A stretch of 64,000 nt of DNA from Candidatus Aenigmatarchaeota archaeon (GTDB taxonomy: Archaea; Aenigmatarchaeota; Aenigmatarchaeia; QMZP01; JAFGSV01): contig JAFGSV010000012.1 in the NCBI GenBank assembly GCA_016934325.1, positions 44,373 through 108,372 of the forward strand, read 5' to 3'. Numbering within the stretch: the first letter of the stretch is position 1; the number at the start of each line of letters is the position of its first letter. The position numbers were made by a program, and so were the translations under genes. Shown piece after piece: positions 32,778 through 62,953 of this stretch. The notes below the pieces were generated by a model. That model saw only the letters and a program-made list of their open reading frames with translations, did not search any database and was not told the DNA's origin.

Positions 32778-35700
32778 ATGGGAATGAAATCCCAGATATC
32801 CTTTTTGTCAGGAACCCCGATGCAGCTGATCCTGGTCCTTATAGCGGCGATAGGATTCCTGGCATTCGTGACCCTTGGCGCAGGGAACATCACGCAGTTC
32901 TTGCGCGAGACGTGCGAGAAATACCCCGAACTGCCATTCTGTGGGGGGCTTGAAGCGGTCGAGGCTAGGGATTACCAGACCGCCAAGGCATCAACGGAAG
33001 CTCTGGTATGCGCAATAAATTCGGTTGCTCAGGGAAGCGAATGGCTAGGTGGCGGACAGATCGACTGTAATGAGTATTTCGGGAAATCTGGTCCAGTTGC
33101 CGTCCCAGACTCGGATTATGAGAGGATCGAAAAATCGATAAACGCCGGTCTGGGCGTGTTTGACGACGAAGGATGCAGGGACAGGTGCATCGAGGAATTG
33201 TGCCAGGGGATTCCGGGCTGCGAGGTTGAAAGCTCGACATACATTGAAACACTCAAGACGGTTGACGCCGGCCATGAAGGCGATGTCAATTATACCTCAA
33301 GGCGATGCGAATGCGTTGTAGGAATTTCCAATGACCCCAGAGTGAGTTGCGGACAAGAGGAAACAGAAAAATTCGAATACTATGCCGTTAGAGAAGCCGG
33401 GACCATCCTTGAGTGCGAATGCATTTACAGTGGAGGAAGTGAAAACATCATCAAATCAAAGGCCTTCGGCTTGACGAAGGAGCAGGCCGTGTATAACTGC
33501 CATGACTTAGCGAAAAGGGACGTCGAGATCCAGTGCGAAGAGATAAATATAGAGGATAGCCCTGGAGGAAATGCATGGTACCTCAGCATACAGGCCGATT
33601 CCGTAATATTAAAAGGGGAGATGAGGAGGGGTCTGTGCAAGCTGGACGGTGAAAGAGAGAAATTCCATGTATACGGATATGACGACACGAACGTATTTGC
33701 CCAATGCGATTATGACTATGACGCATCCAGATTCTCTATCAATCCCTGGCTGATAAACACCGCCGTCAGCAGGGAGGTTGTCAAATACGAGGATTTTACC
33801 GGCGAACTGATATTTTACAAGAAGGACTTCACGGGAAGGGTCCCCTATTACTATCAGGCAAATCAATTCGAATGCGCTTTGAGCAACTTCGAGTTACCGC
33901 AAGAGATTACTGATTGGGAAGAATGGGTGCCTTGGCACGGAGACCCCAGGTTTTTAATCTACTGGCAGAATTTCCCCGCCGAAGAAGACATGTGGACGAT
34001 GAAAACCAACTGGAAGTTATATGTTGTCTTAGGGATAATAAGCGTCTTGCCGGTCCTGAAATCCGCAAGGATAGTTGCTGGAACGGCTGCACGAGCGGTC
34101 TTGAGTAGAATTTTCAGTTCTCTTGGGAAGGAGGCCGCGGAGAATGTGATAAAAAAAGGCGTAACAACAAGTATGATAAAAAAGGCTTCTACGACGGCAG
34201 TGAAAAACATGATGAAAAAGGGGACTCTATCGAAAACGGTCGGTGGAGAAGTGTTAAGCAGACTTGGAAGGGCGAATATCAATAACGCCATGAAAGAAGC
34301 TGGTGGAGAATTGGCAGAGAGAATAGCAAGGACTTCTGTAGCACAGGCGCCCCAGATTGCTCAGGAATATGCGGTAGATGCCGCAGGAAGGGCACTGACG
34401 CAGGCGGGATTGTATGGCATACCCCAGGAAGCAGCTGAAAAGCTCATGAAAGAATCGGGAGAGGCCGCAAGCAGACAGGCATTGAAATATATGGGCGCAT
34501 ACGGAATGAGGGAACAGTTCGTCAAGCTAATAGGTGATAGGGTCGTGGGAAAAGAATTACCCTGGACAGCCTTGAAGTTTTCAACACTCGTAGGTGCCGC
34601 CAGGATAGCCGAGATAGCCGACAGTATGACACAAGCCAGATTTGAAGTTTTTCCGAACGAAATAGTGTTAAAAGAGGCCCTTGGAAGCCCGGATGAATTC
34701 GATCTCGTTGATGAAATGGATGGTTCACCGGTTCTCATTGTCGTTCCGAACAGGGAATCTAAGTATATATTGCCACAAGTTTTTGACACGGAGAAAACCT
34801 TCCATATGGCATCACCATGCTATCTCGAGTCAGTGACCGTTAGCGGGGTCGATGCCCGATGCTCCGAGTACACATACAACAGAGAAGAAGACGGCTCAAC
34901 TTTTACGAGTTGCGGCGGGGAAATCGAAATAACGGGCAAGGGAGAGCCGTGCGATATAAACCTCTATGGCATGAGCAATTTGGGCCCAATGGAATTCATC
35001 TACTACCTCCATGCCATACCGGACCCAATGTCAGTCATATACAATGATGAGAAAGCACTTGATGAAGGGAAGAATGCGTATGCACCGATTGAATACGAAG
35101 AAGATTGCCCGACGACAATACAATGCGGTAGCAATAACGTTTATTACCATTTTGATGGCACGGAATGGAAATGGAAATCTCCCAGCGCAAATATCGATGA
35201 TTACAGACCAGTGCAACAGGTTTCTGACACGGAATGGCAAAATCTTGAACAAAATTACGACTTCGAGACCGCACACTTCGATATTATGAACGGCTTGGCG
35301 GGCAAGAACTTCGAATCCGGTGTTTCCGTTATTCAATCAACCCTCAACAGCGACAAAGACACAAAAGGAGGCAAAACCAGTGACGACTATCTTATAATAC
35401 ACCAATTTAAGAAATCGCCGAGTGAAACGTCGCCTAGTGATAACTATAATAACCTGGCTGAAATAATGACAGAAGATGTCAGCATGAGCGCCGGTTATTA
35501 TATAATCCCATTCGCGGAAAGCACGCTTCTGTATTACAAACCGGAGCCCGAAACGCTCAAAATAGGTAAAGTCGAGGGAGATAAAATAACCACATACGAA
35601 CTCACGAAGGACAGCGAAAGTTACCTTCATAATGTGTACACGCCAGTGGATTTTGAAGACGTGGTTGACATTCAGAAGAGCAGCAGTACGAGATTGGGAG

Positions 35701-36239
35701 AAAGAACGGCTATTATCACAACTTTCAGGATTGATGTCCCTGACTGGTCAGACTCCTATGGCGGTGACATAACATGGGTCAATATAGAAATCAATAATCC
35801 GGACGAGAAAGCAATAGAGATAGAGCCTTCCAGCGTGAACGGCGGCATCTTCGCAACAATAACGCTTTCCGATGAAGGTGATAACGGCATACTCCATTCA
35901 ATCATAATCGAACAAGACGATAAGGCTAAAACGATGACAGATTTCAATTATGACATGGAGGGTTTTGATTACTACAACCTAAGGAACTGCATAAGCAAGG
36001 GCGTCATCGTTGAAATGGGTAAGAAGAAAGGCGACGCGACCAATTATTGCACGGGTGGCCTTTCTACAGGTAAAGCATGGCTTGAATATGGCGGTGACAT
36101 TGCACTTGTGGCAGGTGTGGTGGTCGGCACATGTTTAGGAGGATGGCCTGGCGCTGCGGTTGCTGCTGTTGGGGGTCTTATCGAAACGGGATCTGAATAC
36201 GCGAGCGAGAAAATGGGCGAATGGCCAAACTCCTGGTGA
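32778..36239 (+). CDS. Giant Cys-rich membrane protein (N-terminal hydrophobic anchor, internal hydrophobic segment, C-terminal Gly-rich TM)
   Basis: 1153 aa. N-terminus 'FLSGTPMQLILVLIAAIGFLAFV'. About 30 Cys in the first 400 aa. A K-rich middle region. C-terminal 'IALVAGVVVGTCLGGWPGAAVAAVGGLI'. Confidence 0.6.
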   Translation: MGMKSQISFLSGTPMQLILVLIAAIGFLAFVTLGAGNITQFLRETCEKYPELPFCGGLEAVEARDYQTAKASTEALVCAINSVAQGSEWLGGGQIDCNEYFGKSGPVAVPDSDYERIEKSINAGLGVFDDEGCRDRCIEELCQGIPGCEVESSTYIETLKTVDAGHEGDVNYTSRRCECVVGISNDPRVSCGQEETEKFEYYAVREAGTILECECIYSGGSENIIKSKAFGLTKEQAVYNCHDLAKRDVEIQCEEINIEDSPGGNAWYLSIQADSVILKGEMRRGLCKLDGEREKFHVYGYDDTNVFAQCDYDYDASRFSINPWLINTAVSREVVKYEDFTGELIFYKKDFTGRVPYYYQANQFECALSNFELPQEITDWEEWVPWHGDPRFLIYWQNFPAEEDMWTMKTNWKLYVVLGIISVLPVLKSARIVAGTAARAVLSRIFSSLGKEAAENVIKKGVTTSMIKKASTTAVKNMMKKGTLSKTVGGEVLSRLGRANINNAMKEAGGELAERIARTSVAQAPQIAQEYAVDAAGRALTQAGLYGIPQEAAEKLMKESGEAASRQALKYMGAYGMREQFVKLIGDRVVGKELPWTALKFSTLVGAARIAEIADSMTQARFEVFPNEIVLKEALGSPDEFDLVDEMDGSPVLIVVPNRESKYILPQVFDTEKTFHMASPCYLESVTVSGVDARCSEYTYNREEDGSTFTSCGGEIEITGKGEPCDINLYGMSNLGPMEFIYYLHAIPDPMSVIYNDEKALDEGKNAYAPIEYEEDCPTTIQCGSNNVYYHFDGTEWKWKSPSANIDDYRPVQQVSDTEWQNLEQNYDFETAHFDIMNGLAGKNFESGVSVIQSTLNSDKDTKGGKTSDDYLIIHQFKKSPSETSPSDNYNNLAEIMTEDVSMSAGYYIIPFAESTLLYYKPEPETLKIGKVEGDKITTYELTKDSESYLHNVYTPVDFEDVVDIQKSSSTRLGERTAIITTFRIDVPDWSDSYGGDITWVNIEINNPDEKAIEIEPSSVNGGIFATITLSDEGDNGILHSIIIEQDDKAKTMTDFNYDMEGFDYYNLRNCISKGVIVEMGKKKGDATNYCTGGLSTGKAWLEYGGDIALVAGVVVGTCLGGWPGAAVAAVGGLIETGSEYASEKMGEWPNSW

Positions 36240-45617: not shown

Positions 45618-45988
45618 ACAATAAAGGTGCCGGGAAATCGAAAGCTCGGATAGCAAGGGAATTCCCCGAGAATTTCGTCATCGGCGGGTTGCTTGTGATG
45701 CTTGCGATATGGGTCGCCAGGGCCTCGACCCCGGCCATAGGCGGGATAATAGCGGCCGTGCCGATCAGGTATGCGGTCACATGGTCGATCGCGGCGGTAC
45801 GCCGGGGTAAGGAATTCGCGGAGGACATGGCGAGGGGCTCGGTCATCGGGATGCCCGGCAACATCACGTTCTCGTTAGCCTTGTTTGCCATGCTTTTGGT
45901 TTCAATCGATTTCCTGACGGCGTTCATCGTGTCCATACTGGCAGGAATAGCGGTGCTTGCCCTGTGCAAGTTTACCTTTCCAGAATGA
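45593..45988 (+). CDS. Small membrane protein (paired family, copy B)
   Basis: 'AIGGIIAAVPIRYAVTWSIAA' paralogous to copy A. Overlaps copy A by 25 nt. Confidence 0.45.
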   Translation: MHRSGDAMNNKGAGKSKARIAREFPENFVIGGLLVMLAIWVARASTPAIGGIIAAVPIRYAVTWSIAAVRRGKEFAEDMARGSVIGMPGNITFSLALFAMLLVSIDFLTAFIVSILAGIAVLALCKFTFPE

Positions 45989-48900
45989 AGTACTTCGGGT
46001 GCTCTACCTTCTTGGGTATCTTCTCTATCAGCATCTGGAACCTCTCCCCTATCCCAAGGATCTTGAGGTCCTTGGTGAGCCGCATGGCCCTCTCCAGCTT
46101 GTAGCCCTTGTCGGCATACACCTCGAACAGGATGTCGCCTTTCTTGACCCTGTCACCCATCTTCTTGTGCAGCAGTATCCCGGCACCCTTGTCCTTGGGG
46201 GTACCCGAGGCCCTCGCTATCTCGACGAGCGCACTGTTGTTGATCCATCCGACGGTGCCGTTCACCGTGGACTTGACATCCACGTTCTTCGACCCGATAG
46301 GCAGGTCGTCGGGCTTTATGCCCGGATCACCTCCCTGGGCTGCTATGATCTCCTTGAGCTTCTTGTAGGCCTTGCCGCTCCTGAGGAGCCTCATAGCCTC
46401 TTTGTTCCCCCCTCTGCCTAGCTTGAAATCCAAGAGAATCCCCGCCAGGTGCGTCACCTTGTCCACAAGGTCGCCAGGGCCCTTGCCGTTCATAAGCGTG
46501 CACAGGGCCTCCCTCGCCTCCAGGGCGGGACCGATCGCGAAACCGATCGGCTGCTCGCCGAAGGTCGATGCCCCCACGGTATTTATCTTCAGCATCTTCC
46601 CGAGCTCGATGAACCTCTCGGCAAGGCTCTCGGCCTCCTTCGTCGTCTTCACCTTGGCTTCCTCCCCTGTCGGGATGTCTATGACGAGGTATTTCGCGCC
46701 GACCGCCTTCTTCTTTGACATCACGCTCGGCAGCAGCAACGGGTCAATGGACAATGGATACTCTATCTTGATGAAGAGGTCGTCCGCCGGGGCCAGGTCC
46801 ACGGAGCCTCCCCATACGAGGCACCCGTTCGTCTTGTGGACCACCTTCTTGATCTCATCGAGCTCAAGCTCGACCGGCGCCAGGCATTCGAACCTGTCAG
46901 CGGTGCCTGCGGGGGACGTTATCGCCCTGCTCGATGTCTTGGGTATGGTAAGGCCCGCGGCTGCTATTATGGGGACGAGCACCATGGAAGTCTCATCCCC
47001 CGGGACCCCTCCTATACTGTTGTGTAAGAAAATCGGTCCATAACCACCAACGAAATTTTCATAACCTTCAACACAGAAATCGTAAACATATTCATGCCCT
47101 GCACAACTCACTTCTTCGATTGACTTGACAGCAAGAAATCCTAAATTTGAATATGCAATCCTTTTCGTTTCAGCCTCGCCCCCGTTTGGTACAAGGTCTA
47201 GAAGAGACCTAGCTTTATTAAAAGTAATATAACGGTTTCTTCTGAAACCCCTTCTGGTTTCATGGTCCCAAAAATCACAGCTACCGAACCTGTTTAGATT
47301 TGCCTGTTCTATGGGTATGAAATTGAGGAATGCTGCTGTATTCTTACCTCCATTCCCGAGCACGGGATTCGCTTGGGTATAAATGAAATTTACAGGTGCA
47401 GTTTCAGATTTATATCCGGATGGGAATTCCCTGAATCCGGCCTCCCTGTAGGAGGTGCTGTAAGAAATGCCGCACACGGATAAAAGGTACTGCAAACCTA
47501 TGGATAACTCCTTGCTTGCCGTATCTGATATGATTTCATAGTTCCTCCTGAAATAACCATCACCCTTGAAATAGCTCCTAAGGAACTCCAGTTGCAGTTT
47601 TCTTGGCAAGTTGAAAATCAGTTCTGGCACTTCCTTGAACCTCGCTCCGTGTTTGAGTTTGAAAACATTATCAAAGATTTTTGCCAAAAGCTTGTTATAT
47701 ACGTTCAAATGCACGGCTGTTTTATGGGGATGGGTTATAGTTGTTTCCAGACTGAAAACATTTCTCACACAATCTTTTATGTCTTTGATAATTTCCGTCT
47801 CCTTTGTCCCAAGAGAGAAATGGACGCCATTTTCATTGGTGTAGCCCTCAGCAATCCAGTAACCAAGGATTTTGACTAATGATTCCTTAACAGGAACAAA
47901 AATCGGAATCCCGTTTCCGTGTTTCAATTTGAGCTTGGCATTCGCTGGCAGACGGACCTTTTTCTTTCTGTAAACATTGAACGGGATTAAATCGTACATT
48001 CTTTCTCTAAATGGTATTATCCCTCGGTAACTTTCCGATACCCCTTTGATGAAAACATCTTCGGTCAATTCCGGCGGCAGTTTAAGCAACCCTCGAACTA
48101 AGTCTATTTTCTCAATATAGGCTCCCGATTCAGGTACTTCTCTCGGCACTACGACGAAATCACCAACCTTAAGATTCTTGGATGGTATCGATTTTATTTC
48201 ACCGTCTTTAAGCACGAAAAGGGAGTGGCAATGCGTGGTGACAACTTCTCTATTTCCGAGCAAAGTAATTTTATACAATTTTTTTGGTGCCGGATGCCTG
48301 TAAATCCCTGTAATGGGCTTGAAGGATATCTTGAGATTCCCGTCGAAACTCAAGGCCTCATAATCTGCATCTTCTGTTTCTATGTATTCGGCACGATTAC
48401 CAACCTTTTCTATTTTCTTGCAATTCATCTTAAAGAAATTATCAATAAACTCCCCTATTTTCACAAGCCTCCTTCTTCCCCCTTCCTTAATCATCACGGG
48501 AGTATCCCAGGTAACGGAATGCTTGTCATATACCACCTTCCTGCCGAGGTCCAGCTTCTTCCCCGTAATGGCCATCGCCCTGGAGAGGGCGGCTGCCTCC
48601 TTGGTTGTCATGCCGTGATAGTATAATGCCGTCACAAAGGCCGTCATCTCTATCTCCGACAGCTTCCTGTTTACCGTGTCCTTCACGATCTTGTAGATAT
48701 CGGAGTCCTTCAGCGCATTCCCGCTAAGCTTCTCCCTTATGTGTATCAGGGATTCGGGGGGTTCGGACGGGGAAATCTCAATCCTGTCCCCGCTGCCAGC
48801 TTCCATGTGCTCAGCTATCTCGCTATGGAGGCCTATCTGCCCGGGCTTGATGAAGCGGGTTGCGACATTGACGATGGCGGTCCCCTTCTTGCCGCGCAAG

Positions 48901-49013
48901 GAAAGCTCGACCCTGTCAAGGGGCCTGACATCGATATCCTCCGCATCCTCCTTGTTCAGGATTATGATGGGCTTATCCGCTTCCAGTCCAAGTAGCTTTG
49001 CCTTGAGCAGCAT
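45972..49013 (-). CDS. deoA: AMP phosphorylase (thymidine-phosphorylase family) interrupted by a 500-aa intein
   Basis: The N-terminal AMPpase-specific domain and C-terminal 'SIGGVPGDETSMVLVPIIAAAGLTIPKTSSRAITSPAGTADRFE...LVWGG' align to archaeal AMPpase. The extein junction 'YDKH|...|SIGGVPG' restores the 'DKHSIGGVPG' phosphate loop. Confidence 0.85.
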   Translation of the reverse strand: MLLKAKLLGLEADKPIIILNKEDAEDIDVRPLDRVELSLRGKKGTAIVNVATRFIKPGQIGLHSEIAEHMEAGSGDRIEISPSEPPESLIHIREKLSGNALKDSDIYKIVKDTVNRKLSEIEMTAFVTALYYHGMTTKEAAALSRAMAITGKKLDLGRKVVYDKHSVTWDTPVMIKEGGRRRLVKIGEFIDNFFKMNCKKIEKVGNRAEYIETEDADYEALSFDGNLKISFKPITGIYRHPAPKKLYKITLLGNREVVTTHCHSLFVLKDGEIKSIPSKNLKVGDFVVVPREVPESGAYIEKIDLVRGLLKLPPELTEDVFIKGVSESYRGIIPFRERMYDLIPFNVYRKKKVRLPANAKLKLKHGNGIPIFVPVKESLVKILGYWIAEGYTNENGVHFSLGTKETEIIKDIKDCVRNVFSLETTITHPHKTAVHLNVYNKLLAKIFDNVFKLKHGARFKEVPELIFNLPRKLQLEFLRSYFKGDGYFRRNYEIISDTASKELSIGLQYLLSVCGISYSTSYREAGFREFPSGYKSETAPVNFIYTQANPVLGNGGKNTAAFLNFIPIEQANLNRFGSCDFWDHETRRGFRRNRYITFNKARSLLDLVPNGGEAETKRIAYSNLGFLAVKSIEEVSCAGHEYVYDFCVEGYENFVGGYGPIFLHNSIGGVPGDETSMVLVPIIAAAGLTIPKTSSRAITSPAGTADRFECLAPVELELDEIKKVVHKTNGCLVWGGSVDLAPADDLFIKIEYPLSIDPLLLPSVMSKKKAVGAKYLVIDIPTGEEAKVKTTKEAESLAERFIELGKMLKINTVGASTFGEQPIGFAIGPALEAREALCTLMNGKGPGDLVDKVTHLAGILLDFKLGRGGNKEAMRLLRSGKAYKKLKEIIAAQGGDPGIKPDDLPIGSKNVDVKSTVNGTVGWINNSALVEIARASGTPKDKGAGILLHKKMGDRVKKGDILFEVYADKGYKLERAMRLTKDLKILGIGERFQMLIEKIPKKVEHPKYFILER
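47019..48518 (-). mobile_element. Intein with LAGLIDADG homing-endonuclease domain (in AMP phosphorylase)
   Basis: Starts 'SVTWDTPVMIKEGG' (block A with Ser1). LAGLIDADG-like 'KILGYWIAEGYT' and 'LRSYFKGDGYF'. Ends 'VGGYGPIFLHN' with +1 Ser. The segment is visibly AT-richer than the exteins. Confidence 0.75.
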
Positions 49014-51749: not shown

Positions 51750-51869
51750 GCGGAGATGGCCGAATGGCTCAGGCGATCGGCTGCAGGCGGTGTGGCAAGG
51801 CTTCTGCTCGTTCCGAAGCCGATGACCGATAGACACCGGTTCATGGGGGTTCAATTCCCCCTCTCCGCT
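51750..51869 (+). tRNA. Intron-containing tRNA (120 nt); isotype unresolved (Cys-GCA if spliced at canonical 37/38, or a class II Ser-like tRNA)
   Basis: Acceptor GCGGAGA pairs with TCTCCGC. D-arm GCC/GGC with a GG loop. T-arm GGGGG-TTCAATT-CCCCC. A 7-bp helix ATCGGCT/AGCCGAT encloses a ~31-34-nt insert. A U-tract follows the 3' end. Confidence 0.6.
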
Positions 51870-55284: not shown

Positions 55285-56160
55285 ATGCCCTCCCTGTACG
55301 AGAGAATGGCGAAGGCGTCTTTTGGCTGGCTGGCTGACAAAACGGTCACGAACTTCGAGCCGCTAAAGCCATACCTCAAGGGCGCCAGGATCAAGATGCT
55401 GATCAAGGCATGGGTCGGTGTCATATACCTGAGCTCCTTGATCGCTTTCTTCGCTTCGCTCGCGGCCGTCGTTATCCTTGGGATGCTTTATGACATCTAC
55501 TACCTGATATACCTGATCATGCTGGTCTTCATCCCCATACTGGGCGCATCCTTCACGTTCCTGACGCTCTACGTGTATCCGATGCAGAAGGCCAAGAGCA
55601 GGGCGAAATCCATCGAGAACAACCTGCCCTTCGCCGTGACCCACATGTCTGCGATAGCCTCATCCGGCATCCCGCCAGAGTTCATGTTCAGCCTGATAGG
55701 GGGCTTCAGGGAGTACGGGGAGATATCGGAGGAGGCGAACATGATAGTCAGGAACATAAGGACCTTCGGCTCCTCGAGCATCGCCGCCATGAAGAACGTC
55801 GCCAACCAGACCCCGAGCAAGGATCTGAAGGAGATATTGATGGGCATAAGCTCGACGATCGAGACTGGAGGGAACCTCACGGCCTACCTCAGGGAGATGT
55901 CGGAGAAGGCGCTGTTCGACTACAGGATAAAGAGGGAGAAGTACATCAAGACGCTTTCGACATACGCCGACATCTACACGGCGCTGCTCGTGGCGGCCCC
56001 CCTGTTCCTGCTGTCCACCATGGCAATAATGAGCATAATCGGAGGGGACATAATGGGACTGACGACGGGGCAGATAGTCACCCTTATGACCTGGCTGCTC
56101 CTGCCGGTGATGAACACGGCGTTCCTCGCCTTCATCCACATAACGTATCCGGGTGTTTAG
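55285..56160 (+). CDS. TadB-like platform protein (single T2SSF domain)
   Basis: TM-TM-helical cytoplasmic domain-TM. The first of two adjacent half-size FlaJ-like genes. Confidence 0.6.
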   Translation: MPSLYERMAKASFGWLADKTVTNFEPLKPYLKGARIKMLIKAWVGVIYLSSLIAFFASLAAVVILGMLYDIYYLIYLIMLVFIPILGASFTFLTLYVYPMQKAKSRAKSIENNLPFAVTHMSAIASSGIPPEFMFSLIGGFREYGEISEEANMIVRNIRTFGSSSIAAMKNVANQTPSKDLKEILMGISSTIETGGNLTAYLREMSEKALFDYRIKREKYIKTLSTYADIYTALLVAAPLFLLSTMAIMSIIGGDIMGLTTGQIVTLMTWLLLPVMNTAFLAFIHITYPGV

Positions 56161-57024
56161 ATGGAGATAAAGAGGTATTACGGGGAGATACTGTCGATAA
56201 TCGCAGGCGTGCTTATCATCATGGGGAACATCTTCGTTTTCCCGACGCTCATACCGCCCGAAATATTCACGGTCGTCGAGCCCCTGATAAACATGCTGGG
56301 GGCCCTGATCGCCATAGTCCCGCCGGTTCTCATTTTCTACACGAGGTACAAGGAGAGCAAGGAGGTAGAGGCGCAGTTCACGATATTCATCACGGACTTC
56401 ACGGAGGCCATAGATTCGGGAATGACCTTGCCCATGGCGCTCAGGTTCTGCGGCAAGAAGAGCTATGGGGTCCTGACGCCCAGCATCAGGTCGATAACGG
56501 CGCAGGTCGACTGGGGCATCCCCTTCAGGGAAGCGCTGAAGATGTTCAGCCACAAGGTGGGCTCCATTACCGTGAGGAGGGCGATCACCACGATAATAGA
56601 GACCTACAAGGTGGGAGGGAAGATATCGGACACCCTGAAGGCCGTGGGCGAGAGCCTGATAGAGATAAACAAGATCAAGGCCGAGAGGTCCGTGTCCGTG
56701 CAGTCCCAGATACTGACGTCCTATCTGATATTCTTCGTCTTCATCTTCATCCTCGTCATCCTGCAGAGCTTCCTCATACCCGCCCTCACTCCCCAGACCG
56801 ACGTCGCAGGCATAACGTCGATGTCGGGAGGGGCCGTGCCCGAGATGTTCCCTCCCGAGATATTCGTGAACTTCATAGTTGTCCAGGGATTCTTCGCCGG
56901 GCTGGCCACCGGGAAGATGGCCGAGGGGTCCGTCGTGGCGGGGGTGAAGCACTCCCTCGTGCTCATAGTCATCGGTTACAGCATATTCAGCATAGCTGGC
57001 CATTTCCAGATAAGCTTCTTCTAG
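56161..57024 (+). CDS. TadC-like platform protein (single T2SSF domain)
   Basis: Same architecture. Its start abuts the stop of the previous gene. Confidence 0.6.
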   Translation: MEIKRYYGEILSIIAGVLIIMGNIFVFPTLIPPEIFTVVEPLINMLGALIAIVPPVLIFYTRYKESKEVEAQFTIFITDFTEAIDSGMTLPMALRFCGKKSYGVLTPSIRSITAQVDWGIPFREALKMFSHKVGSITVRRAITTIIETYKVGGKISDTLKAVGESLIEINKIKAERSVSVQSQILTSYLIFFVFIFILVILQSFLIPALTPQTDVAGITSMSGGAVPEMFPPEIFVNFIVVQGFFAGLATGKMAEGSVVAGVKHSLVLIVIGYSIFSIAGHFQISFF

Positions 57025-57099: not shown

Positions 57100-57528
57100 A
57101 TGGCGAGGAAAGCGATCTCACCCATCATTGCCATCGTTATCATAATAGCCATAGTGGTGACGCTGGGCGGCCTGCTGTCATCCTGGCTGAGCGGCTTCGT
57201 TTCGGAAAGCACCCAGACCGACATGTGCGCCATAAACACCATGTACACCGTCAGCGAGGCGACTCACAACGAGACTAGCGGATTGATAAAGGTCAAGGTA
57301 AAGAACAACGGCAGGTACGGGCTTTACAACTTCTCCATCGAGGCCGACAACGGGACGACCATAGCCCTGATCCCCTCCACGTCCCCGGCCCCCACGTACA
57401 TACTCGGGACGGGCAAGACCCAGTACGTGCTGGCGAACAGCTCGGGCTACAACATCACCAAAATCGAGAGCATCAAGGTGCTCGTCGGCTCATGCCAGGC
57501 GTACTCGCCCTCGCCTGTCGGTATTTAG
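57100..57528 (+). CDS. Archaeal type IV pilin (DUF361/Flp-like, class III signal)
   Basis: 'MARKA|ISPIIAIVIIIAIVVTLGG', N-glycosylation sequons, beta-rich C-terminus. Confidence 0.65.
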   Translation: MARKAISPIIAIVIIIAIVVTLGGLLSSWLSGFVSESTQTDMCAINTMYTVSEATHNETSGLIKVKVKNNGRYGLYNFSIEADNGTTIALIPSTSPAPTYILGTGKTQYVLANSSGYNITKIESIKVLVGSCQAYSPSPVGI

Positions 57529-57575
57529 CAAATATTTAAAAGCAACCGACGCCAATAAATAAAAAGGAGAATGAA

Positions 57576-58010
57576 ATGACACGGAAATCAAAGGGCATAT
57601 CGCCTTTGGTCGCGGTCATCATGCTGATAGCGTTCACGATGATCGTCGCTGGAATTCTTGCCGGGTGGGCCACAAGGTTCGCCACCGAGCAGAGGAGCAT
57701 CCTCGAGAAGTGCGTAAGGGCCAACATAGTGATCAAGAGGGCTACCTACGCGGCCGGGAACCTGAGCGTTATGCTCTACAACGCGGGGACTGTCCCCCTC
57801 ACCAACTTCCAGGTGCAGGTCACCTACAACAGCAAGGGACCCCCCATGCCGAGCACTTGGACGATCTACGACTCGATCGATGCCAACTCCTTCGAGACCT
57901 TCTCACACAACGTGACGAACACGAGCATAGATTTCGTCGAGATGAGGTCGGTGGAGTGCCAGGGCGCCTACGACCTGATCAGAAGCTATGACGTAGTCGG
58001 GCTTCCCTGA
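57576..58010 (+). CDS. Archaeal type IV pilin (DUF361/Flp-like, class III signal)
   Basis: 'MTRKSKG|ISPLVAVIMLIAFTMIVAG'. SD 'AGGAGA' upstream. Confidence 0.65.
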   Translation: MTRKSKGISPLVAVIMLIAFTMIVAGILAGWATRFATEQRSILEKCVRANIVIKRATYAAGNLSVMLYNAGTVPLTNFQVQVTYNSKGPPMPSTWTIYDSIDANSFETFSHNVTNTSIDFVEMRSVECQGAYDLIRSYDVVGLP

Positions 58011-58042: not shown

Positions 58043-61000
58043 TCATTCGACGGCCTTGAGGCCCGTCACGAACCCCAGCAGCTTCTTGACCTTGCTCTTC
58101 GCCACGTATGGGGAAATGTCCTTGCTCACCCATTCCAGCAAGGCCTCCTTGTCCTTGTAGTAGAGCGATATGAATTCCGCCACGTTGTCGTACTTCAGGA
58201 CGTCGTGCCTGAGCATCCATTCCAGCACCTTCTTCCTGTTCTCGAACTCCTCCTTTATGAGCTCGTAGTTCATCCCCTTCTCGAAGGATATCTTCCTCAG
58301 CAGGTCGGATTCGGTCAGTGCGCTGTCGAAGCCGTCCCTGGACGGGACCCAGACGAAGCTCTTCAGAGTCTTGGCCTTTCCCGAATCTATGTCGACCGAC
58401 TGGACCTCGACTATCTCCTTGATCCTCCTGGCCGATTCGCCCCTCTCCTTGGCCCTTATCATCACGAGAAGCAGGTCCAGCGACTCGACGAGGCTGGGGG
58501 AGAGCTCGATCGGCGGCGTCTCGAGCCTCTTTATGACATCCTCCACGGAGCCCGCGTGCATTGTGCCTATGCTGGCGTGGCCGCTGGCCATGCCCTGGAA
58601 CATGACGTACGCCTCCTTGCCCCTCACCTCGCCCACGATGACGTAGTCCGGGTTCTGCCTGAAGGACTCCTTCAGCAGCTCGAACAGGGTGACCTCCCCG
58701 TACCGCTTCCCGCTCGCCTCGGGCACCCCGAAGCCGATCCTCGAGACGGCAGGGATCCAGTTCTCGTGGGGCAGGTTCAGCTCCCTCGTATTGTGCAGTA
58801 TTACATTTGAGCACAAGAAATTCTCAAACCCGGGAACGGATATATCGTAAACCATCCTCTTTCTTTTTGGCAGTTTCTTGACCTTTGCCACTTTATCCCA
58901 TAATATGTCCGAGTGGGAAATATCATTGAAAATAGAGCCTTTCTCGGAGATTTCCCGAAGATAATCCCGTCCAATCCTCTGCATCCCTTGCAGATAGGGC
59001 CAACAGATTTTATGGTGATCGTTTACCTTTCTCAGTTGGCATTCTGTCAAAGGAATGACGTCAGAACAGGTGTGTTTCGGTTTTTTCAAGCATATCTTAT
59101 CAAGCTTGACGCTTTTCCTGCCTTGCAGGAAACCCACGTCATTCTTGAATTTCTTTACATTGTCATAAGATGATACGGATAGAGAAACGCAATGATCCTT
59201 TCTATTGAAATCCCCCATCCTCGAGATTATCCCCAGCCTCAGAAACACCGTTTGTATGTCTTTGAGCAGTTCCAAACTCTGGGAGGAGCAGGACACCTCA
59301 TAGTTCTTAACGGTGCCGTCAGCGCTGAAATAGCCTTTGAGGACCTGTTTGAGTTGCTTGTTGCTGAGGTTGAAGATCGTGTCGGGGATTCCTTTCGTCC
59401 TGGAATACCCGTCAAGCTTGAGTACGTATTTCATGAACTTATAGAATATCGTGCTGTTGACAGACATGGAAACGCCATCGTTCATGCATGTTATGTTGAG
59501 ATCCAGTTTTCTTGCTAACCGCTCAACGATTCCCCTGCACTCACGGTCGCTGTTGGATATTATCACCCTGTTTGAGTTGTGGTTATCATAACTCCCATCA
59601 CCGAGCCACAAGCCGACGAAATTCAAAAATGCATCATCGAGATGAAAGATCACAGGCAGAGACTTCATGCCTCTGCTCTTAATCCTGAGCTGTCGCAGCT
59701 CGGACTTGGTAAAGGCGATGTCATCTTTCCGCAATCTGGATATTCTCATGATACCCCTTTTCTTGCACCATTGATACGTCGATTTCGACATCTTAAGATC
59801 TCTATAGCCCCTGTTCGCAAGCAACCTTCTCACCGGTTTCCCGGCAAGGAAATCATCCCTGTAGACATCCATGAAGTCCAGGAGGTTGATGATAGCTTTC
59901 CTTTCACCGTCAACGGGCAGAATTCTTGGCACGGCAATGAATTTACCTTCGATATCTGCCGGTTTGGCCTCTTCCATACCATTCTCGCCCCAGGAAAACA
60001 GCGAGTGATCGGAGGTCACCCTCACGGTTCTACCGGTGGATGTGAGGATTTCATAGACATCCTTATCGACCGAATGCTTGAAAATCTTTGAGGGTTCGGC
60101 GAACTTGATCTTGTAGTTGCCGTCCAATGTCAGAATCGGTTTTTTCGTGTCCTTATCAATATAATCCTTTATGCTCATCCTCTTTATGCCATTATCCTTC
60201 ACCAGGATTTCCGCCTCCCCCGTTACGCTGTCCTCGATGCTGACAATCCTGGCCTCGGGCTGTATGAACAGCGTGATGGCGTTCAGCATGCTGGTCTTGC
60301 CCGTGCTGACACCTCCGCATATGAGCAGTGATATGCCCGACTGGACGACAAGCCACAGGTAGGCCATGACATCCGTCGATGCCGTCCCCATCTTGATGAG
60401 CTCAATGGGGGAGAAGGGGAACTTCCTGAACTTCCTGATGGAGAACGTCGGGCCCTTGGTCGTGACGTCCTTGGCGAGCGACGCCTGCACCCTGCTTCCG
60501 TCTGGCAGGCTGCCGTCCAGCAGGGGCCTCGCGTACGATATGTACCTGCCGCAGCGCTCGGACAGCTTGACGACGAAGTTGTTCAGGTTGCCCATGTCCT
60601 TGTAAACCACGTTGCTGGCAAGGGAGCCGAATTTCGTGTGCACGACGTATATGGGGCTGTTTGCGCCGTCGCACCCCACGTCCTCTATGAACGGGTCGTG
60701 CATCATGGGCTCTATCTCGTTGAGCCCTATGAAGTCCCTGTAGATGTAATAGAGTATCTTCACGTACTGCTTCGACGAGAGGCGCACCCCCTCCTCTTCG
60801 AGGACAGCCAGCACCTTCTTCTCGAGGTACTCCATCGCCGTCCCCTGCTCCTCGAGGCTCGTCAGCTCAACGTCTATAAGCTCCAGGATGTCGCTCTTCA
60901 CCTTTTCCAGGATCTCCTGGTCGCTCTTGGTCAGCCTGGGCTCCAGGACGTTGTACCGCAGCACCTTCCTCTCCGGGTCCCACTTTATGTTCGCGAACAC

Positions 61001-61147
61001 GAGCGGCTCGAGAAGCGGGTATCTTATGTCGAGGTCCCTGACGTTCTTGGCGCTTGGCAGCGTGATGAGGAAAGATGGCTCCTTGATCTCTATCTTGGGG
61101 TACTGGCTGGATTTCTTCTTCTTGAACAAGGTTCTCAACGATTTCAT
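58043..61147 (-). CDS. FlaI/PilB/TadA-like secretion ATPase interrupted by a 480-aa intein
   Basis: Walker A 'GGVSTGKTSML'. The Asp box is split 'RIVSIED|...|TRELNLPHENWIP'. His box 'GTMHAGS'. Extein total ~554 aa, typical of FlaI. Confidence 0.85.
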   Translation of the reverse strand: MKSLRTLFKKKKSSQYPKIEIKEPSFLITLPSAKNVRDLDIRYPLLEPLVFANIKWDPERKVLRYNVLEPRLTKSDQEILEKVKSDILELIDVELTSLEEQGTAMEYLEKKVLAVLEEEGVRLSSKQYVKILYYIYRDFIGLNEIEPMMHDPFIEDVGCDGANSPIYVVHTKFGSLASNVVYKDMGNLNNFVVKLSERCGRYISYARPLLDGSLPDGSRVQASLAKDVTTKGPTFSIRKFRKFPFSPIELIKMGTASTDVMAYLWLVVQSGISLLICGGVSTGKTSMLNAITLFIQPEARIVSIEDSVTGEAEILVKDNGIKRMSIKDYIDKDTKKPILTLDGNYKIKFAEPSKIFKHSVDKDVYEILTSTGRTVRVTSDHSLFSWGENGMEEAKPADIEGKFIAVPRILPVDGERKAIINLLDFMDVYRDDFLAGKPVRRLLANRGYRDLKMSKSTYQWCKKRGIMRISRLRKDDIAFTKSELRQLRIKSRGMKSLPVIFHLDDAFLNFVGLWLGDGSYDNHNSNRVIISNSDRECRGIVERLARKLDLNITCMNDGVSMSVNSTIFYKFMKYVLKLDGYSRTKGIPDTIFNLSNKQLKQVLKGYFSADGTVKNYEVSCSSQSLELLKDIQTVFLRLGIISRMGDFNRKDHCVSLSVSSYDNVKKFKNDVGFLQGRKSVKLDKICLKKPKHTCSDVIPLTECQLRKVNDHHKICWPYLQGMQRIGRDYLREISEKGSIFNDISHSDILWDKVAKVKKLPKRKRMVYDISVPGFENFLCSNVILHNTRELNLPHENWIPAVSRIGFGVPEASGKRYGEVTLFELLKESFRQNPDYVIVGEVRGKEAYVMFQGMASGHASIGTMHAGSVEDVIKRLETPPIELSPSLVESLDLLLVMIRAKERGESARRIKEIVEVQSVDIDSGKAKTLKSFVWVPSRDGFDSALTESDLLRKISFEKGMNYELIKEEFENRKKVLEWMLRHDVLKYDNVAEFISLYYKDKEALLEWVSKDISPYVAKSKVKKLLGFVTGLKAVE
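58790..60229 (-). mobile_element. Intein with LAGLIDADG homing-endonuclease domain (in pilus ATPase)
   Basis: Starts 'SVTGEAEILVKDNG' (Ser1). 'FVGLWLGDGSYD' and 'LKGYFSADGTV' LAGLIDADG blocks. Ends 'NVILHN' with +1 Thr. AT-rich relative to the exteins. Confidence 0.75.
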
Positions 61148-61492: not shown

Positions 61493-62953
61493 CTAGCCTT
61501 TGATGACTCCCAAGGGCTCGAACCTGGCGACCCGCAGGGATATGCCAGCGCCATGCACCGAATCCACGACCGCCTCGACGTCCTTGTACGCCAGGGGGGC
61601 CTCCTCGGCCAGGCTCTGTGGGTGCGGGCTCTTGGACTCGATGCCCTTCCGCGCCAGCTCGTCCTTTATCTTCCCGCCCCAGAACCTCTTTATGGCCGCG
61701 TGCCTGCTCATGGCCCGGCCTGCGCCGTGCGCGCTGGACCCGAAGGTCTTCTCGAGCGCCGTCTCGGTGCCTTTCAGCAGATAAGAGCTGGTGCCCATGG
61801 TGCCGGCGATTATGACGGGCTTCCCGGGATATGACCTGGTGGCCCCCTTCCTGTGAACGTACAGGGACCTCCTCTTGCCGTCTATCTTGAACTCCTCCAG
61901 CTTGACGATGTTGTGCGCTATGGCGTACACGGTCCTCATTTCCATGTCCTCCCAGGTCCTGCCGAACACGCGCTCGAACACCTCCCTGATCCACTTGGTC
62001 ATGACGGCCCTGTTCGTGAATGAGTAGTTCACGGCCGCCTTCATCGCCGCGAAGAAGTCCTGGCCTTCCTTGGAATCCACCGGGGCGCACGCCAGCTGCT
62101 TGTCGGGCAGCCATATCTTGTACTTCTGGACGGCCTGCTCCTGGATCTTCAGGTAGTCCGTCGCGATCTGGTGGCCCAGCCCCCTCGAGCCGCAGTGCAG
62201 CATGATGGTCACCTGGTCCGGGCCGGTAAGCCCCCATTTCTCCGCGGTCTGCCTGTCGAAGATGTCGGTGACCCTCTGTATCTCCAGGAAGTGGTTGCCC
62301 GCCCCAAGCGTACCGCACTGGGGGGCTCCCCTCTTCTTGGCGAGGTCGGACACCTTGTCCGGGTCTGCGCCGGCCATCCTGCCGCCCTCCTCGGTCGCCT
62401 GCTGGTCCTCCTTGGTCACATAGCCGTTGTCGACGGCCCAGTCAAGGCCCTTGACGAGGATCTCGTCCAGCTGTCCCGGGCTGAGCCTCAGCTTGCCCCC
62501 GGAGCCCACCCCGCAAGGGACCGCGCTGAAGAGGCCGTCAACGAGCTCCTTCTGCCTCTTCCTGACATCGTCGGCGGTGAGGTTCGTCCTTATGAGGTTT
62601 ATGCCGCAGTTTATGTCGAAGCCGCAAAGGCCGGCGGATATTATGCCCTCCTTGTCATCGAACGCGGATACCGCGCCCATGGGAAGCCCATATCCCCAGT
62701 GCATGTCCGGCAACCCCACGACGGGGCTGACAACCCCCGGAAGGGTGGCGACGTTCGTGAGCTGCTGGATGGCGTCCTCCTCTATCGCATCCAGGATCTT
62801 CTGGTTCGCGATTATCCTGGCGTCTACCCTCATCTCCTGCCTGGCCGATTTCGGCAGGAGCCATTCGAACCCGTTCACCTTTTTCAGCTTTTCCTTCATG
62901 CACAACACCGCCGTGTGTCGAGGATGATGATATTGATATTGTTCATTATTCAT
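61493..62953 (-). CDS. rtcB: RNA-splicing ligase RtcB
   Basis: 486 aa, 'MLHCGSRGLGHQIATDY', 'SSAHGAGR'. Intein-free. Confidence 0.9.
   Translation of the reverse strand: MNNEQYQYHHPRHTAVLCMKEKLKKVNGFEWLLPKSARQEMRVDARIIANQKILDAIEEDAIQQLTNVATLPGVVSPVVGLPDMHWGYGLPMGAVSAFDDKEGIISAGLCGFDINCGINLIRTNLTADDVRKRQKELVDGLFSAVPCGVGSGGKLRLSPGQLDEILVKGLDWAVDNGYVTKEDQQATEEGGRMAGADPDKVSDLAKKRGAPQCGTLGAGNHFLEIQRVTDIFDRQTAEKWGLTGPDQVTIMLHCGSRGLGHQIATDYLKIQEQAVQKYKIWLPDKQLACAPVDSKEGQDFFAAMKAAVNYSFTNRAVMTKWIREVFERVFGRTWEDMEMRTVYAIAHNIVKLEEFKIDGKRRSLYVHRKGATRSYPGKPVIIAGTMGTSSYLLKGTETALEKTFGSSAHGAGRAMSRHAAIKRFWGGKIKDELARKGIESKSPHPQSLAEEAPLAYKDVEAVVDSVHGAGISLRVARFEPLGVIKG

Follow-up and report, generated by a model that had tools for sequence, protein, structure and literature searches.

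The ATPase that is the assembly motor of a compact type IV pilus locus (two T2SSF and two pilin genes) in the genome of a DPANN archaeon (Aenigmarchaeota) is interrupted within its Asp box by a 480-aa insert. Judged from its motifs and predicted structure, the insert can be assigned with high confidence, as regards both identity and mechanism, to the canonical class 1 inteins with a LAGLIDADG endonuclease, seated between Asp306 and Thr787 (IVSIED/TRELNL). The feature is real but ordinary: the Asp-box intein is common in related archaea, and the host family is already known to carry inteins. What is new is evolutionary, namely the foreign composition of the element, the shallow alternation of intein-plus and intein-minus alleles, and purifying selection. 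Because of composition and distribution, we favour (with a probability of roughly 0.65) an actively homing element that entered a high-GC lineage horizontally and fairly recently, after the split from intein-free sisters; the donor was probably a lower-GC relative. Throughout, the window denotes the whole stretch of 64,000 nucleotides that was analysed.

The intein, its host ATPase and the pilus locus

The insert begins with SVTGEAEILV at residue 307 and finishes with NVILHN at residue 786 of a precursor whose ORF has no frame break over 3.1 kb (Table 1). The first-pass annotation had placed a 480-aa intein at 58790-60229, which is exactly where it maps, and had listed Ser1, a block-A-like motif, two LAGLIDADG blocks, a terminal HN and Thr+1, all of which are present. 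The splicing blocks are likewise recovered by profile analysis of the insert alone, which matches Pfam Intein_splicing (E=7.4e-22, 78 bits against a cut-off of 35.8, residues 9-480 of the insert), Pfam LAGLIDADG_3 (E=1.4e-15, two stretches) and NCBIfam intein_Nterm TIGR01445 (36.6 bits against a cut-off of 24.5). Ser1, the T-x-x-H of block B, the Asp of block F, the terminal His-Asn and Thr+1 are those of a class 1 intein, the insertion is in frame within a conserved host motif, and the intein-free homologues are colinear; each LAGLIDADG motif has its catalytic acidic residue (D211 and D304). Thr is a rarer +1 nucleophile than Cys or Ser. Among 120 same-site inteins, conservation reaches at least 98% at T72, D74, H75, S76, L77 and F78 of block B, at G206, L207, W208, G210, D211 and G212 of LAGLIDADG motif 1, at G-Y-F-S-A and G305 of motif 2, and at V460, D462, E469 and F471 of block F, whereas the catalytic D304 of motif 2 is kept less strictly (at least 85% but below 98%). 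A class 2 (KlbA-type) intein was rejected, the insert having Ser1 and Thr+1 and not Ala1 and Cys+1. A mini-intein, a BIL/Hedgehog-type domain and a class 3 intein were also rejected in view of Ser1, TxxH, HN and the full endonuclease. Three opposite-strand ORFs within the intein (58913-59173, 59192-59518 and 59579-60091, + strand), without Pfam match, were taken as spurious.

Removal of the intein leaves a 554-aa archaeal GspE/FlaI/VirB11-type ATPase with an unbroken Asp box, IVSIEDTRELNL; the junction in the protein would read ...IVSIEDTRELNLPHENWIPAVSR... when spliced and ...IVSIEDSVTGEAEILVK... when unspliced. Once joined, the exteins (554 aa) can be aligned across VSIEDTRE with no gap, both to A. 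fulgidus GspE (2OAP, E=5e-106) and to S. acidocaldarius FlaI (4II7, E=2e-78), as expected from the earlier proposal that a FlaI/PilB-type ATPase is interrupted at its Asp box and that the motif is restored on removal. Walker A, Asp box, Walker B and His box then align in order to both structures, as in the T2SSE/VirB11/GspE/FlaI superfamily; the Pfam T2SSE domain (5e-27) is split in two by the insert, and G278, G283, K284 and T285 of Walker A are invariant in a 96-sequence alignment (A1). In the AF2 model of the precursor (mean pLDDT 83), the exteins match AfGspE/FlaI, and the insert, with pLDDT mostly 83-97 and a dip to 64-72 near its N-terminus, has a predicted HINT fold that agrees with the Pfam Intein_splicing match and with solved inteins. 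GspE (2OAP) and FlaI (4II7/4IHQ) are homologous to the spliced extein over its full length and match its predicted fold, but their structures contain no intein, and the window ATPase lies in a pilin/T2SSF locus and not in an archaellum operon. Indeed, its identity as the archaellum motor FlaI/ArlI was rejected, given a score of 381.6 bits against the NCBIfam NF058587 equivalog cut-off of 550 and the pilin and T2SSF neighbours; no FlaH, FlaG, FlaF or archaellin was detected among the scanned neighbours.

Both pilin genes are convergent with the ATPase gene, and the N-termini of their products (MARKAISPIIA... and MTRKSKGISPLVA...) resemble class III signal peptides. A low-GC3 intein inside a high-GC3 host gene is seen a second time in the window, in another gene. 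The precursor is 100% identical to P0001, a Candidatus Aenigmarchaeota MAG protein deposited at NCBI under the name 'Flp pilus assembly complex ATPase component TadA'.

Table 1. Features of the pilus locus and of the intein-bearing ATPase gene, in window coordinates
Feature	Position	Strand	Remarks
T2SSF gene (TadB/TadC/FlaJ-like membrane platform)	55285-56160	+	Pfam T2SSF 5.3e-14
T2SSF gene (TadB/TadC/FlaJ-like membrane platform)	56161-57024	+	Adjoins the first; Pfam T2SSF 2.5e-16
Archaeal type IV pilin gene	57100-57528	+	Pfam Pilin_N 1e-3, 20.3 bits, below the 25.2 cut-off
Archaeal type IV pilin gene	57576-58010	+	Pfam Pilin_N 1.3e-5, 26.4 bits, above the cut-off
Whole precursor ORF	58043-61147	-	1034 aa + stop; N-extein, intein and C-extein share one frame
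C-extein, aa 787-1034	58046-58789	-	Contains Walker B and His box
His box GMASGHASIGTMHAG	58550-58594	-	Within C-extein
Walker B PDYVIVGEVRG	58619-58651	-	Within C-extein
Asp box, C-terminal half TRELNLPHE	58763-58789	-	Thr787 is the +1 nucleophile
Intein, aa 307-786 (480 aa, 1,440 bases)	58790-60229	-	HINT splicing domain interrupted by LAGLIDADG homing endonuclease
Intein block G NVILHN, His479-Asn480	58790-58807	-	C-splice junction; HN and Thr+1 in 120/120 homologues
Intein block F MVYDISVPGFENFLCS	58808-58855	-	D462
LAGLIDADG motif 2 LKGYFSADG	59315-59341	-	Catalytic Asp is intein D304
LAGLIDADG motif 1 FVGLWLGDG	59594-59620	-	Catalytic Asp is intein D211
Intein block B GRTVRVTSDHSLF	59996-60034	-	T72-x-x-H75 (TSDH)
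Intein block A SVTGEAEILVKDN	60191-60229	-	Ser1 nucleophile; S1 in 120/120 same-site homologues
Asp box, N-terminal half RIVSIED, aa 300-306	60230-60250	-	Ends at N-splice junction; aligns with AfGspE KVVSIED
N-extein, aa 1-306	60230-61147	-	N-terminal domain, Walker A, first Asp-box half
Walker A / P-loop GGVSTGKTS, aa 278-286	60290-60316	-	

Judging by its sequence, the intein would splice itself out and its endonuclease would cleave DNA. By analogy with the established class 1 mechanism, the 117-kDa precursor would be translated whole, and Ser1 would undergo an N-O acyl shift to an ester that Thr+1 would attack, giving a branched intermediate; cyclisation of Asn480, assisted by His479, would free the intein, and an O-N shift would join IED to TRE to yield an active 554-aa ATPase. 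The endonuclease of the freed intein would then cut the uninterrupted site ...ATCGAGGAC/ACGAGGGAGCTGAAC... of intein-free alleles (the slash marks the insertion point), and recombinational repair of the cut allele would copy the intein in, that is, homing.

Occurrence of the insertion and comparison with known inteins

The first-pass annotation had considered an intein in a motor ATPase of the pilus/archaellum family unusual. Its structural reading held in every detail, but its claim of rarity finds no support: each of the top 120 database matches to the precursor, which come exclusively from DPANN archaea (Aenigm-, Woese-, Pace-, Micr- and Nanoarchaeota), has a same-site intein of 480-533 aa (480-487 aa in most), several homologues are labelled 'ATPase VirB11/archaellum biosynthesis ATPase/intein/homing endonuclease' by JGI, and two surveys already report inteins from the host family (PMC4760082, PMC4390880). 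Among the precursor homologues, some have two inteins, and one 2097-aa representative has three intein stretches. Median identity among the homologues is 50% for the intein and 46% for the N-extein, and the nearest relatives of the intein among 1.84 billion representatives lie nearly all in T2SSE ATPases, which speaks for site specificity. Table 3 of Novikova et al. (2016, PMC4760082) counts 21 inteins in archaeal VirB11 (COG0630) and 5 in CpaF, and Makarova et al. (2015, PMC4390880) describe an intein of arCOG01819 pilus-assembly ATPases as common to Thermococci and class I methanogens; these are elements of the same kind in the same host superfamily (T2SSE hexameric ATPases). However, both surveys predate most DPANN genomes, and in their accessible text, which gives no insertion sites, the likeness is established at the level of the host family. 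In the literature found on inteins in DPANN archaea or in pilus ATPases, which consists of general statements (PMC4760082, PMC4390880), the DPANN Asp-box allele is not named.

Foldseek matched the insert of the AF2 model to PI-PkoII (Tko Pol-2, 2CW7; 4.6e-22), the TliVMA intein (7QSS; 6.7e-20), PI-PfuI (1DQ3; 2.1e-16) and PI-SceI (1VDE). Together with PhoVMA (7QST), these inteins share the predicted architecture of the window intein, HINT plus a two-motif LAGLIDADG endonuclease. Matches to solved inteins range from 4.6e-22 to about 1e-9, with target-normalised TM-scores of 0.61-0.74 for the archaeal ones. Nonetheless, sequence identity to the window intein is 11-18%, and the solved inteins reside in DNA polymerase, V-ATPase and ribonucleotide reductase; their target DNA site therefore differs from that of the window intein.

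The KlbA inteins (Mja, Pab, Pfu, Pho, Mka), known as mini-inteins without an endonuclease, are hosted by a KilB/TrbB/VirB11-like ATPase, and thus both they and the window intein interrupt an archaeal secretion-type ATPase; presumably, they are the same as the arCOG01819 inteins. They belong to class 2, in which the N-terminal residue is Ala1 and Cys+1 attacks the N-junction directly (PMC2807308), whereas the window intein belongs to class 1, with Ser1/Thr+1 and a full endonuclease. No chain named as a KlbA intein was returned by a PDB sequence search (E<=0.01).

Intein-free alleles, composition and the history of the element

The spliced product has the same length, 554 aa, as the intein-free proteins P0121 (92% identical) and P0122 (90% identical). 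Compared with intein-free loci drawn from samples and MAGs other than that of the window, the spliced gene (1665 nt) is 86.2% identical in nucleotides and 90% in amino acids to L001, and 88.5% and 92% identical to L002, in both cases colinear with zero indels. L001 is also syntenic, sharing with the window the gene order archease-RtcB-S26e-ATPase-pilin-pilin-T2SSF-T2SSF-RPA-RadA. The empty site reads ...AGGATAGTCAGCATCGAGGAC/ACGAGGGAGCTGAACCTGCCCCAC... in L002, with the variant GAC/ACACGTGAG in L012. Among 120 intein-free homologues, obtained by extein-only database searches that list no intein-bearing proteins (not even the window precursor), the site is IEDTRE in 118 and IEDVRE in two, and the longer ones (650-716 aa) carry terminal extensions only, with no mini-intein at the Asp-box site. 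In a neighbour-joining tree of exteins, the intein-plus proteins P0001, P0002, P0003/4 and P0005 each cluster with intein-minus proteins (92%, 96%, 86% and 82% extein identity to the respective partner). The alternation is shallow: between intein-plus L003 and intein-minus L012, extein DNA is 97.2% and the upstream flank 98.6% identical, and three synonymous differences are bunched within 5 nt directly after the insertion point. The Woese/Pace/Nanoarchaeota clade, too, has many intein-free orthologues, which shows that the intein has not become fixed in it.

The insert is AT-rich, as had been observed at the outset, with a GC content of 0.453 against 0.582 in the exteins. Its GC3 is 0.60, whereas the exteins reach 0.87 and 0.90 and the genes nearby 0.77-0.86; GC3 is 0.86-0.90 in the host lineage, including the intein-free sisters L001 and L002. 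Composition controls came from a contig scan with the window intein as query, which returned 7 loci; in six other genomes, the same-site intein and its own exteins differ in GC3 by at most about 0.14. Against L003, the intein has a dN/dS of about 0.12, and the intein, including its endonuclease, is under purifying selection and not decaying. In the same comparison, dS is 1.22 for the intein and 1.98 and 3.17 for the exteins, values that, being above 1, are saturated and are also distorted by the between-genome shift in GC3. The best intein match among the sampled sequences is 75% identical in amino acids and 77% in nucleotides; these sequences contain no close donor. When IMG/VR was scanned for a viral vector, the precursor alignment retrieved only distant intein-free ATPases (25-46% identity), and no plasmid vector was found either.

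These data can also be read as those of an old resident, which the window lineage and P0002-P0005 would have received vertically from their last shared ancestor, and which the sisters P0121/P0122, P0124, P0129 and P0130 would have lost, either because it was deleted precisely or because intein-free alleles converted the site. We regard this as considerably less probable than recent arrival, although intein identity (75% for P0002, 66-67% for P0003-5) ranks in the same way as extein identity (81% and about 74%) and the intein is far from its nearest sampled relative, as the saturated dS above indicates. At least four independent precise losses would be needed in the extein tree, dS is smaller in the intein than in the exteins, and an insert inherited vertically should have followed its gene in composition, which is what the same-site inteins of L005, L006, L007, L009 and L010 have done; here, an intein of low GC3 sits in a host lineage whose GC3, sisters included, is uniformly higher. 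As regards gain versus loss, the parallel rankings among P0002-P0005 also fit an older intein with repeated precise loss. The abrupt fall in GC at either edge of the insert (about 0.62 outside, about 0.44 inside) could further suggest a low-GC fragment of another organism mis-joined into a high-GC contig. This is scarcely credible, as the edges coincide exactly with codon boundaries and with the S1 and HN/T junctions and the frame is kept, more than 100 independent assemblies have the same architecture at the same site, and another gene of the window shows the same contrast between intein and host.

Two other readings concern what the element does. A domesticated switch, in which the pilus ATPase becomes active only upon conditional splicing, so that pilus assembly or host attachment is controlled, appears improbable. 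It would accord with the position of the intein between Walker A and Walker B/His box, because of which the precursor is expected to be inactive, with an intein as well conserved as the ATPase itself, with its extreme frequency in DPANN pilus ATPases (some with two or three) and with documented conditional splicing of other ATPase inteins, those of RadA and DnaB. However, both DPANN clades are rich in intein-free orthologues at all depths, and the ATPase therefore does not need the intein in order to work; conservation extends to the endonuclease active site, which points to selection for mobility; and the nucleophiles are Ser and Thr, not the redox-sensitive Cys. Even less likely is a permanent insertion, in which a degenerate intein or an ordinary inserted domain always stays in place, leaving a pseudogene or a 1034-aa fusion protein. 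The NCBI product name, which makes no mention of an intein, might be taken in this sense, but no class 1 splicing residue is missing, and each is shared by 120/120 or at least 98% of homologues, the low dN/dS and the intact frame speak against decay, and a 480-aa domain within the Asp box would part the catalytic motifs.

Significance for DPANN pili and gene exchange

The element is a textbook intein that alters no concept. For annotation, its recognition matters in that the database entry calls the gene simply a 'TadA' ATPase, and the mature motor is predicted to be 554 aa and not 1034 aa long. Inteins cluster in the DPANN type IV pilus ATPase, a hotspot that has four insertion sites and in which one gene can hold as many as three inteins; it also offers a large set of Ser1/Thr+1 inteins with ready intein-free target sites that could be used for homing studies and as new splicing tools. 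DPANN archaea rely on pili for host attachment. It is conceivable, although we would give it only slender odds, that the Asp-box intein and those at the three further sites are more than parasites and gate pilus assembly post-translationally by conditional splicing, or that the alternation of intein-plus and intein-minus alleles directly reflects frequent exchange and recombination of DNA between DPANN cells. Because the allele is polymorphic even between extein coding sequences that are 97% identical, the Asp-box intein may serve as a natural marker by which to trace recombination and gene flow among archaea that are uncultivated and depend on hosts.

Anatomy of the insert and its host ATPase

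The precursor encoded by the pilus ATPase gene reads as a single unbroken open reading frame, in which residue 307 ('SVTGEAEILV') and residue 786 ('NVILHN') bound an insert that, mapped back to the DNA, coincides exactly with the coordinates proposed in the first-pass annotation (Table). The insert is also AT-rich, as had been claimed: its GC content is 0.453 compared with 0.582 in the flanking coding sequence, and a drop in the GC profile marks both of its edges. Open reading frames on the opposite strand within the insert gave no family match and were rejected as genes.

Searched alone, the insert matches Pfam Intein_splicing (E=7.4e-22, 78.3 bits against a cut-off of 35.8) over its residues 9-480, as two HINT domain halves split by an insertion. 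LAGLIDADG_3 is matched in two stretches (E=1.4e-15), and NCBIfam intein_Nterm lies above its cut-off, so that the domain-profile check proposed earlier was positive. Partial NCBIfam matches to intein-containing RNA polymerase A'', DnaB, RFC, IF-2 and other proteins fall on the inteins of those families. Conservation was scored on an alignment of 120 same-site inteins from database homologues. At least 98% conservation was found for S1, G4, block B (TSDH; T72, D74, H75), both LAGLIDADG motifs (G206-L-W-x-G-D211-G and G-Y-F-S-A-x-G305), D462 of block F, and H479 and N480 of block G, with D304 at 85% or more; the +1 residue is Thr in all 120. The Ser1, paired LAGLIDADG blocks, terminal HN and +1 Thr of the first-pass annotation are therefore all present and conserved. 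The whole precursor was modelled with AlphaFold2 on a 96-sequence alignment, giving a mean pLDDT of 83 (mostly 83-97 in the insert, falling to 64-72 close to the N-terminus of the insert). In Foldseek comparisons of this predicted model with the PDB, the exteins match AfGspE and FlaI, and the insert resembles PI-PkoII (E=4.6e-22), the TliVMA intein (6.7e-20), PI-PfuI (2.1e-16) and PI-SceI. Profiles, motifs and predicted fold thus agree with the original reading of an intein with a homing endonuclease: by every sequence and fold criterion, the element is a predicted class-1 intein with an intact two-motif LAGLIDADG endonuclease.

Removal of the insert restores the Asp box, as anticipated for a FlaI/PilB-type ATPase. 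Against both A. fulgidus GspE (2OAP) and S. acidocaldarius FlaI (4II7), the 554-aa product of joining the exteins gives a gap-free alignment (E=5e-106 and E=2e-78, respectively), the Asp-box stretch reading 'RIVSIEDTRELNL' versus 'KVVSIEDTREIKL'. Because the intein splits the Asp box and parts Walker A from Walker B and the His box, the unspliced precursor should, from established knowledge of this ATPase family, be inactive. The surroundings form a compact type IV pilus locus. Assignment as archaellum FlaI was rejected (381.6 bits against the NF058587 cut-off of 550; pilin and T2SSF genes as neighbours). The precursor is 100% identical to an NCBI protein from a metagenome-assembled genome ('Candidatus Aenigmarchaeota'), whose product name gives a TadA ATPase only.

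Features of the ATPase locus and of the remainder of the window (motif positions are precursor residues)
Feature	Position	Remarks
Precursor ORF	58043..61147 (-)	1034 aa
Intein	58790..60229 (-)	480 aa
Walker A, GGVSTGKTS	278-286	upstream of intein
Asp box, IVSIED / TRELNL	301-306 / 787-792	split by intein
Walker B, PDYVIVGEVRG	833-843	downstream of intein
His box, GMASGHASIGTMHAG	852-866	downstream of intein
Two T2SSF platform genes	55285-57024	neighbours of ATPase
Two archaeal type IV pilin genes	57100-58010	convergent with ATPase
S26e, RtcB, archease		other side of ATPase from pilin/T2SSF genes
RtcB	61493..62953 (-)	486 aa, intein-free
RPA, RadA		past T2SSF genes
Gene with second intein	45972..49013 (-)	1013 aa, AMP/thymidine-phosphorylase-like
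Second intein	about 47019..48518	500 aa, LAGLIDADG domain
Rfam tRNA match	51750..51869 (+)	120 nt, 45 bits
ORF in low-GC stretch	32778..36239 (+)	1153 aa, hydrophobic N-terminus

Elsewhere in the window, a second intein, 24% identical to that of the ATPase, lies in a gene with Glycos_trans_3N, Glycos_transf_3 and PYNP_C domains, where it interrupts the conserved DKHS(T/I)GGV motif (junctions, marked by arrows, DKH↓SVTWD...FLHN↓SIGGVPGD). It too is compositionally foreign, with a GC at third codon positions (GC3) of 0.43 against 0.75 and 0.81 in its exteins. The length of the tRNA match, for which ARAGORN makes no call, suggests an archaeal tRNA with an intron. The long ORF (GC 0.43-0.49, GC3 0.52) has no Pfam match and a composition unlike that of its neighbours. 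RtcB is a frequent intein host. In the syntenic relative L001 (2256..4390) it is called as 395 aa and preceded by two small ORFs (208 and 69 aa); thus, the 5' region differs between the genomes.

Distribution of the intein and its intein-free alleles

With the precursor as query, 1308 proteins were found at E<=1e-10. The best 120 all combine T2SSE, Intein_splicing and LAGLIDADG_3, and in each of them the insert falls at position 306/307 of the spliced extein, with junctions IED↓S(V/I)xG and xxHN↓T(R/K)E and intein lengths of 480-533 aa (mostly 480-487). Their named sources (Aenigm-, Micr-, Woese-, Pace- and Nanoarchaeota) are all DPANN, and several bear the JGI label 'VirB11/archaellum biosynthesis ATPase/intein/homing endonuclease'. 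The window intein is thus one copy of a widespread, site-specific DPANN pilus-ATPase allele in a host family known for inteins, and the earlier view that an intein in such an ATPase is unusual does not hold. A second intein occurs in 16 of these 120 (within P0007-P0112) at one of three further sites, at about extein positions 218, 236 and 375; the junctions are PDG↓S...HN↓SR, GPTF↓C...↓TIRKF and, in the His box, GMA↓S...HN↓SGH. The GPTF intein may end in Asp, not Asn. One 2097-aa representative (P0241) has three intein stretches. When the intein alone was run in an exhaustive HMMER search against representatives of 50%-identity clusters, 75 matched at E<=1e-30 and 831 at the looser threshold of E<=1e-10; T2SSE ATPases made up six of the seven best matches scanned. 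These sequences are evidence that the DPANN pilus ATPase is a multi-site intein hotspot. A 27%-identical relative of the window intein (E=1e-28) was seen in Candidatus Paceibacterota bacterium, of the CPR (L011, 4001-5659).

The KlbA host is a VirB11-like ATPase. The literature agrees that inteins are not unusual in this host family. Novikova et al. (2016; PMC4760082) count 21 inteins in archaeal VirB11 (COG0630) and five in CpaF, and Makarova et al. (2015; PMC4390880) describe an intein common to arCOG01819 pilus-assembly ATPases of Thermococci and class I methanogens. KlbA inteins, under study since 2000 (PMC2807308), are class 2 (Ala1/Cys+1), whereas the window intein is class 1 (Ser1/Thr+1). 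No description of the DPANN Asp-box allele specifically was found in the literature searched.

Intein-free alleles are abundant. A search with the spliced extein found at least 120 such proteins (57-92% identity), mostly from Aenigmarchaeota; 118 of the 120 listed have an uninterrupted IEDTRE. The other two have IEDVRE and could not support splicing if invaded, because the +1 nucleophile is absent. The two closest, at 92% and 90% identity, match the length of the spliced ATPase exactly (554 aa), and the locus of the second (L001, GCA_964424395.1) has the gene order of the window. In the proposed comparison with intein-less orthologues, the spliced gene (1665 nt) is colinear, without an indel, with L001 (86.2%) and with L002 (88.5%), a second intein-free locus that differs from the window at one of 21 nt upstream of the insertion point and at none of 30 nt downstream.

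The distribution is sporadic. In a neighbour-joining tree of exteins, every intein-plus protein groups with intein-minus proteins. By pairwise extein identity, the closest intein-minus protein is P0121 for the window (92%), P0124 for P0002 (96%), P0130 for P0003 (86%) and P0129 for P0005 (82%). In the Woese/Pace/Nanoarchaeota clade, intein-free orthologues are equally abundant (74-82% identity to spliced P0034), and the intein is thus not fixed there. The extein DNA of the intein-plus L003 is 97.2% identical to that of the intein-minus L012, and the upstream flanks of the two match at 98.6%. Of the 46 differences between them, three, each of them synonymous, fall within 5 nt right after the insertion point, in the Thr-Arg codons (ACGAGG versus ACACGT); such clustering could reflect a tract of co-conversion or a target that resists cleavage.

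Composition, selection and history of the intein

The intein has a GC3 of 0.60, whereas its exteins reach 0.87 and 0.90 and six neighbouring genes lie at 0.77-0.86. In six other genomes, same-site inteins lie within about 0.14 of their own exteins (L007, 0.59 versus 0.62; L006, 0.23 versus 0.22-0.26; L009, 0.25 versus 0.23-0.26; L005, 0.33 versus 0.38-0.40; L010, 0.30 versus 0.37-0.39; L003, 0.48 versus 0.59-0.62). The composition of the window intein therefore marks it as foreign. Compared with that of L003, it is under purifying selection (dN 0.147, dS 1.22, dN/dS about 0.12). Its synonymous divergence is below that of the host gene (extein dS 1.98 and 3.17), although dS is saturated and skewed by the GC shift. 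Median identity to the window among the 120 homologues is 50% for the intein versus 46% for the N-extein.

The best reading is that a donor of lower GC3 passed the intein to this high-GC Aenigmarchaeota lineage once the lineage had diverged from those of L001 and L002; the sequences are evidence for a comparatively recent invader that is predicted to be still functional. The main rival, an older intein that was repeatedly lost, is considered unlikely because it requires several precise losses and leaves the GC3 gap unexplained. Domestication as a regulatory intein is disfavoured, as intein-free orthologues are abundant and the endonuclease active site is conserved. The conserved motifs and the low dN/dS contradict a dead or permanent insertion. 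An assembly chimera is contradicted by junctions that fall exactly between codons and by the recurrence of this architecture in more than 100 independent assemblies.

On the established class-1 pathway, splicing would begin with an N-O acyl shift at Ser1, followed by transesterification to Thr+1 and cyclisation of Asn480 assisted by His479; an O-N shift would then restore IED-TRE and yield an active 554-aa ATPase. The freed LAGLIDADG enzyme could cut intein-free alleles within their unbroken Asp-box coding sequence, and the intein would be copied in as the cut allele is repaired.
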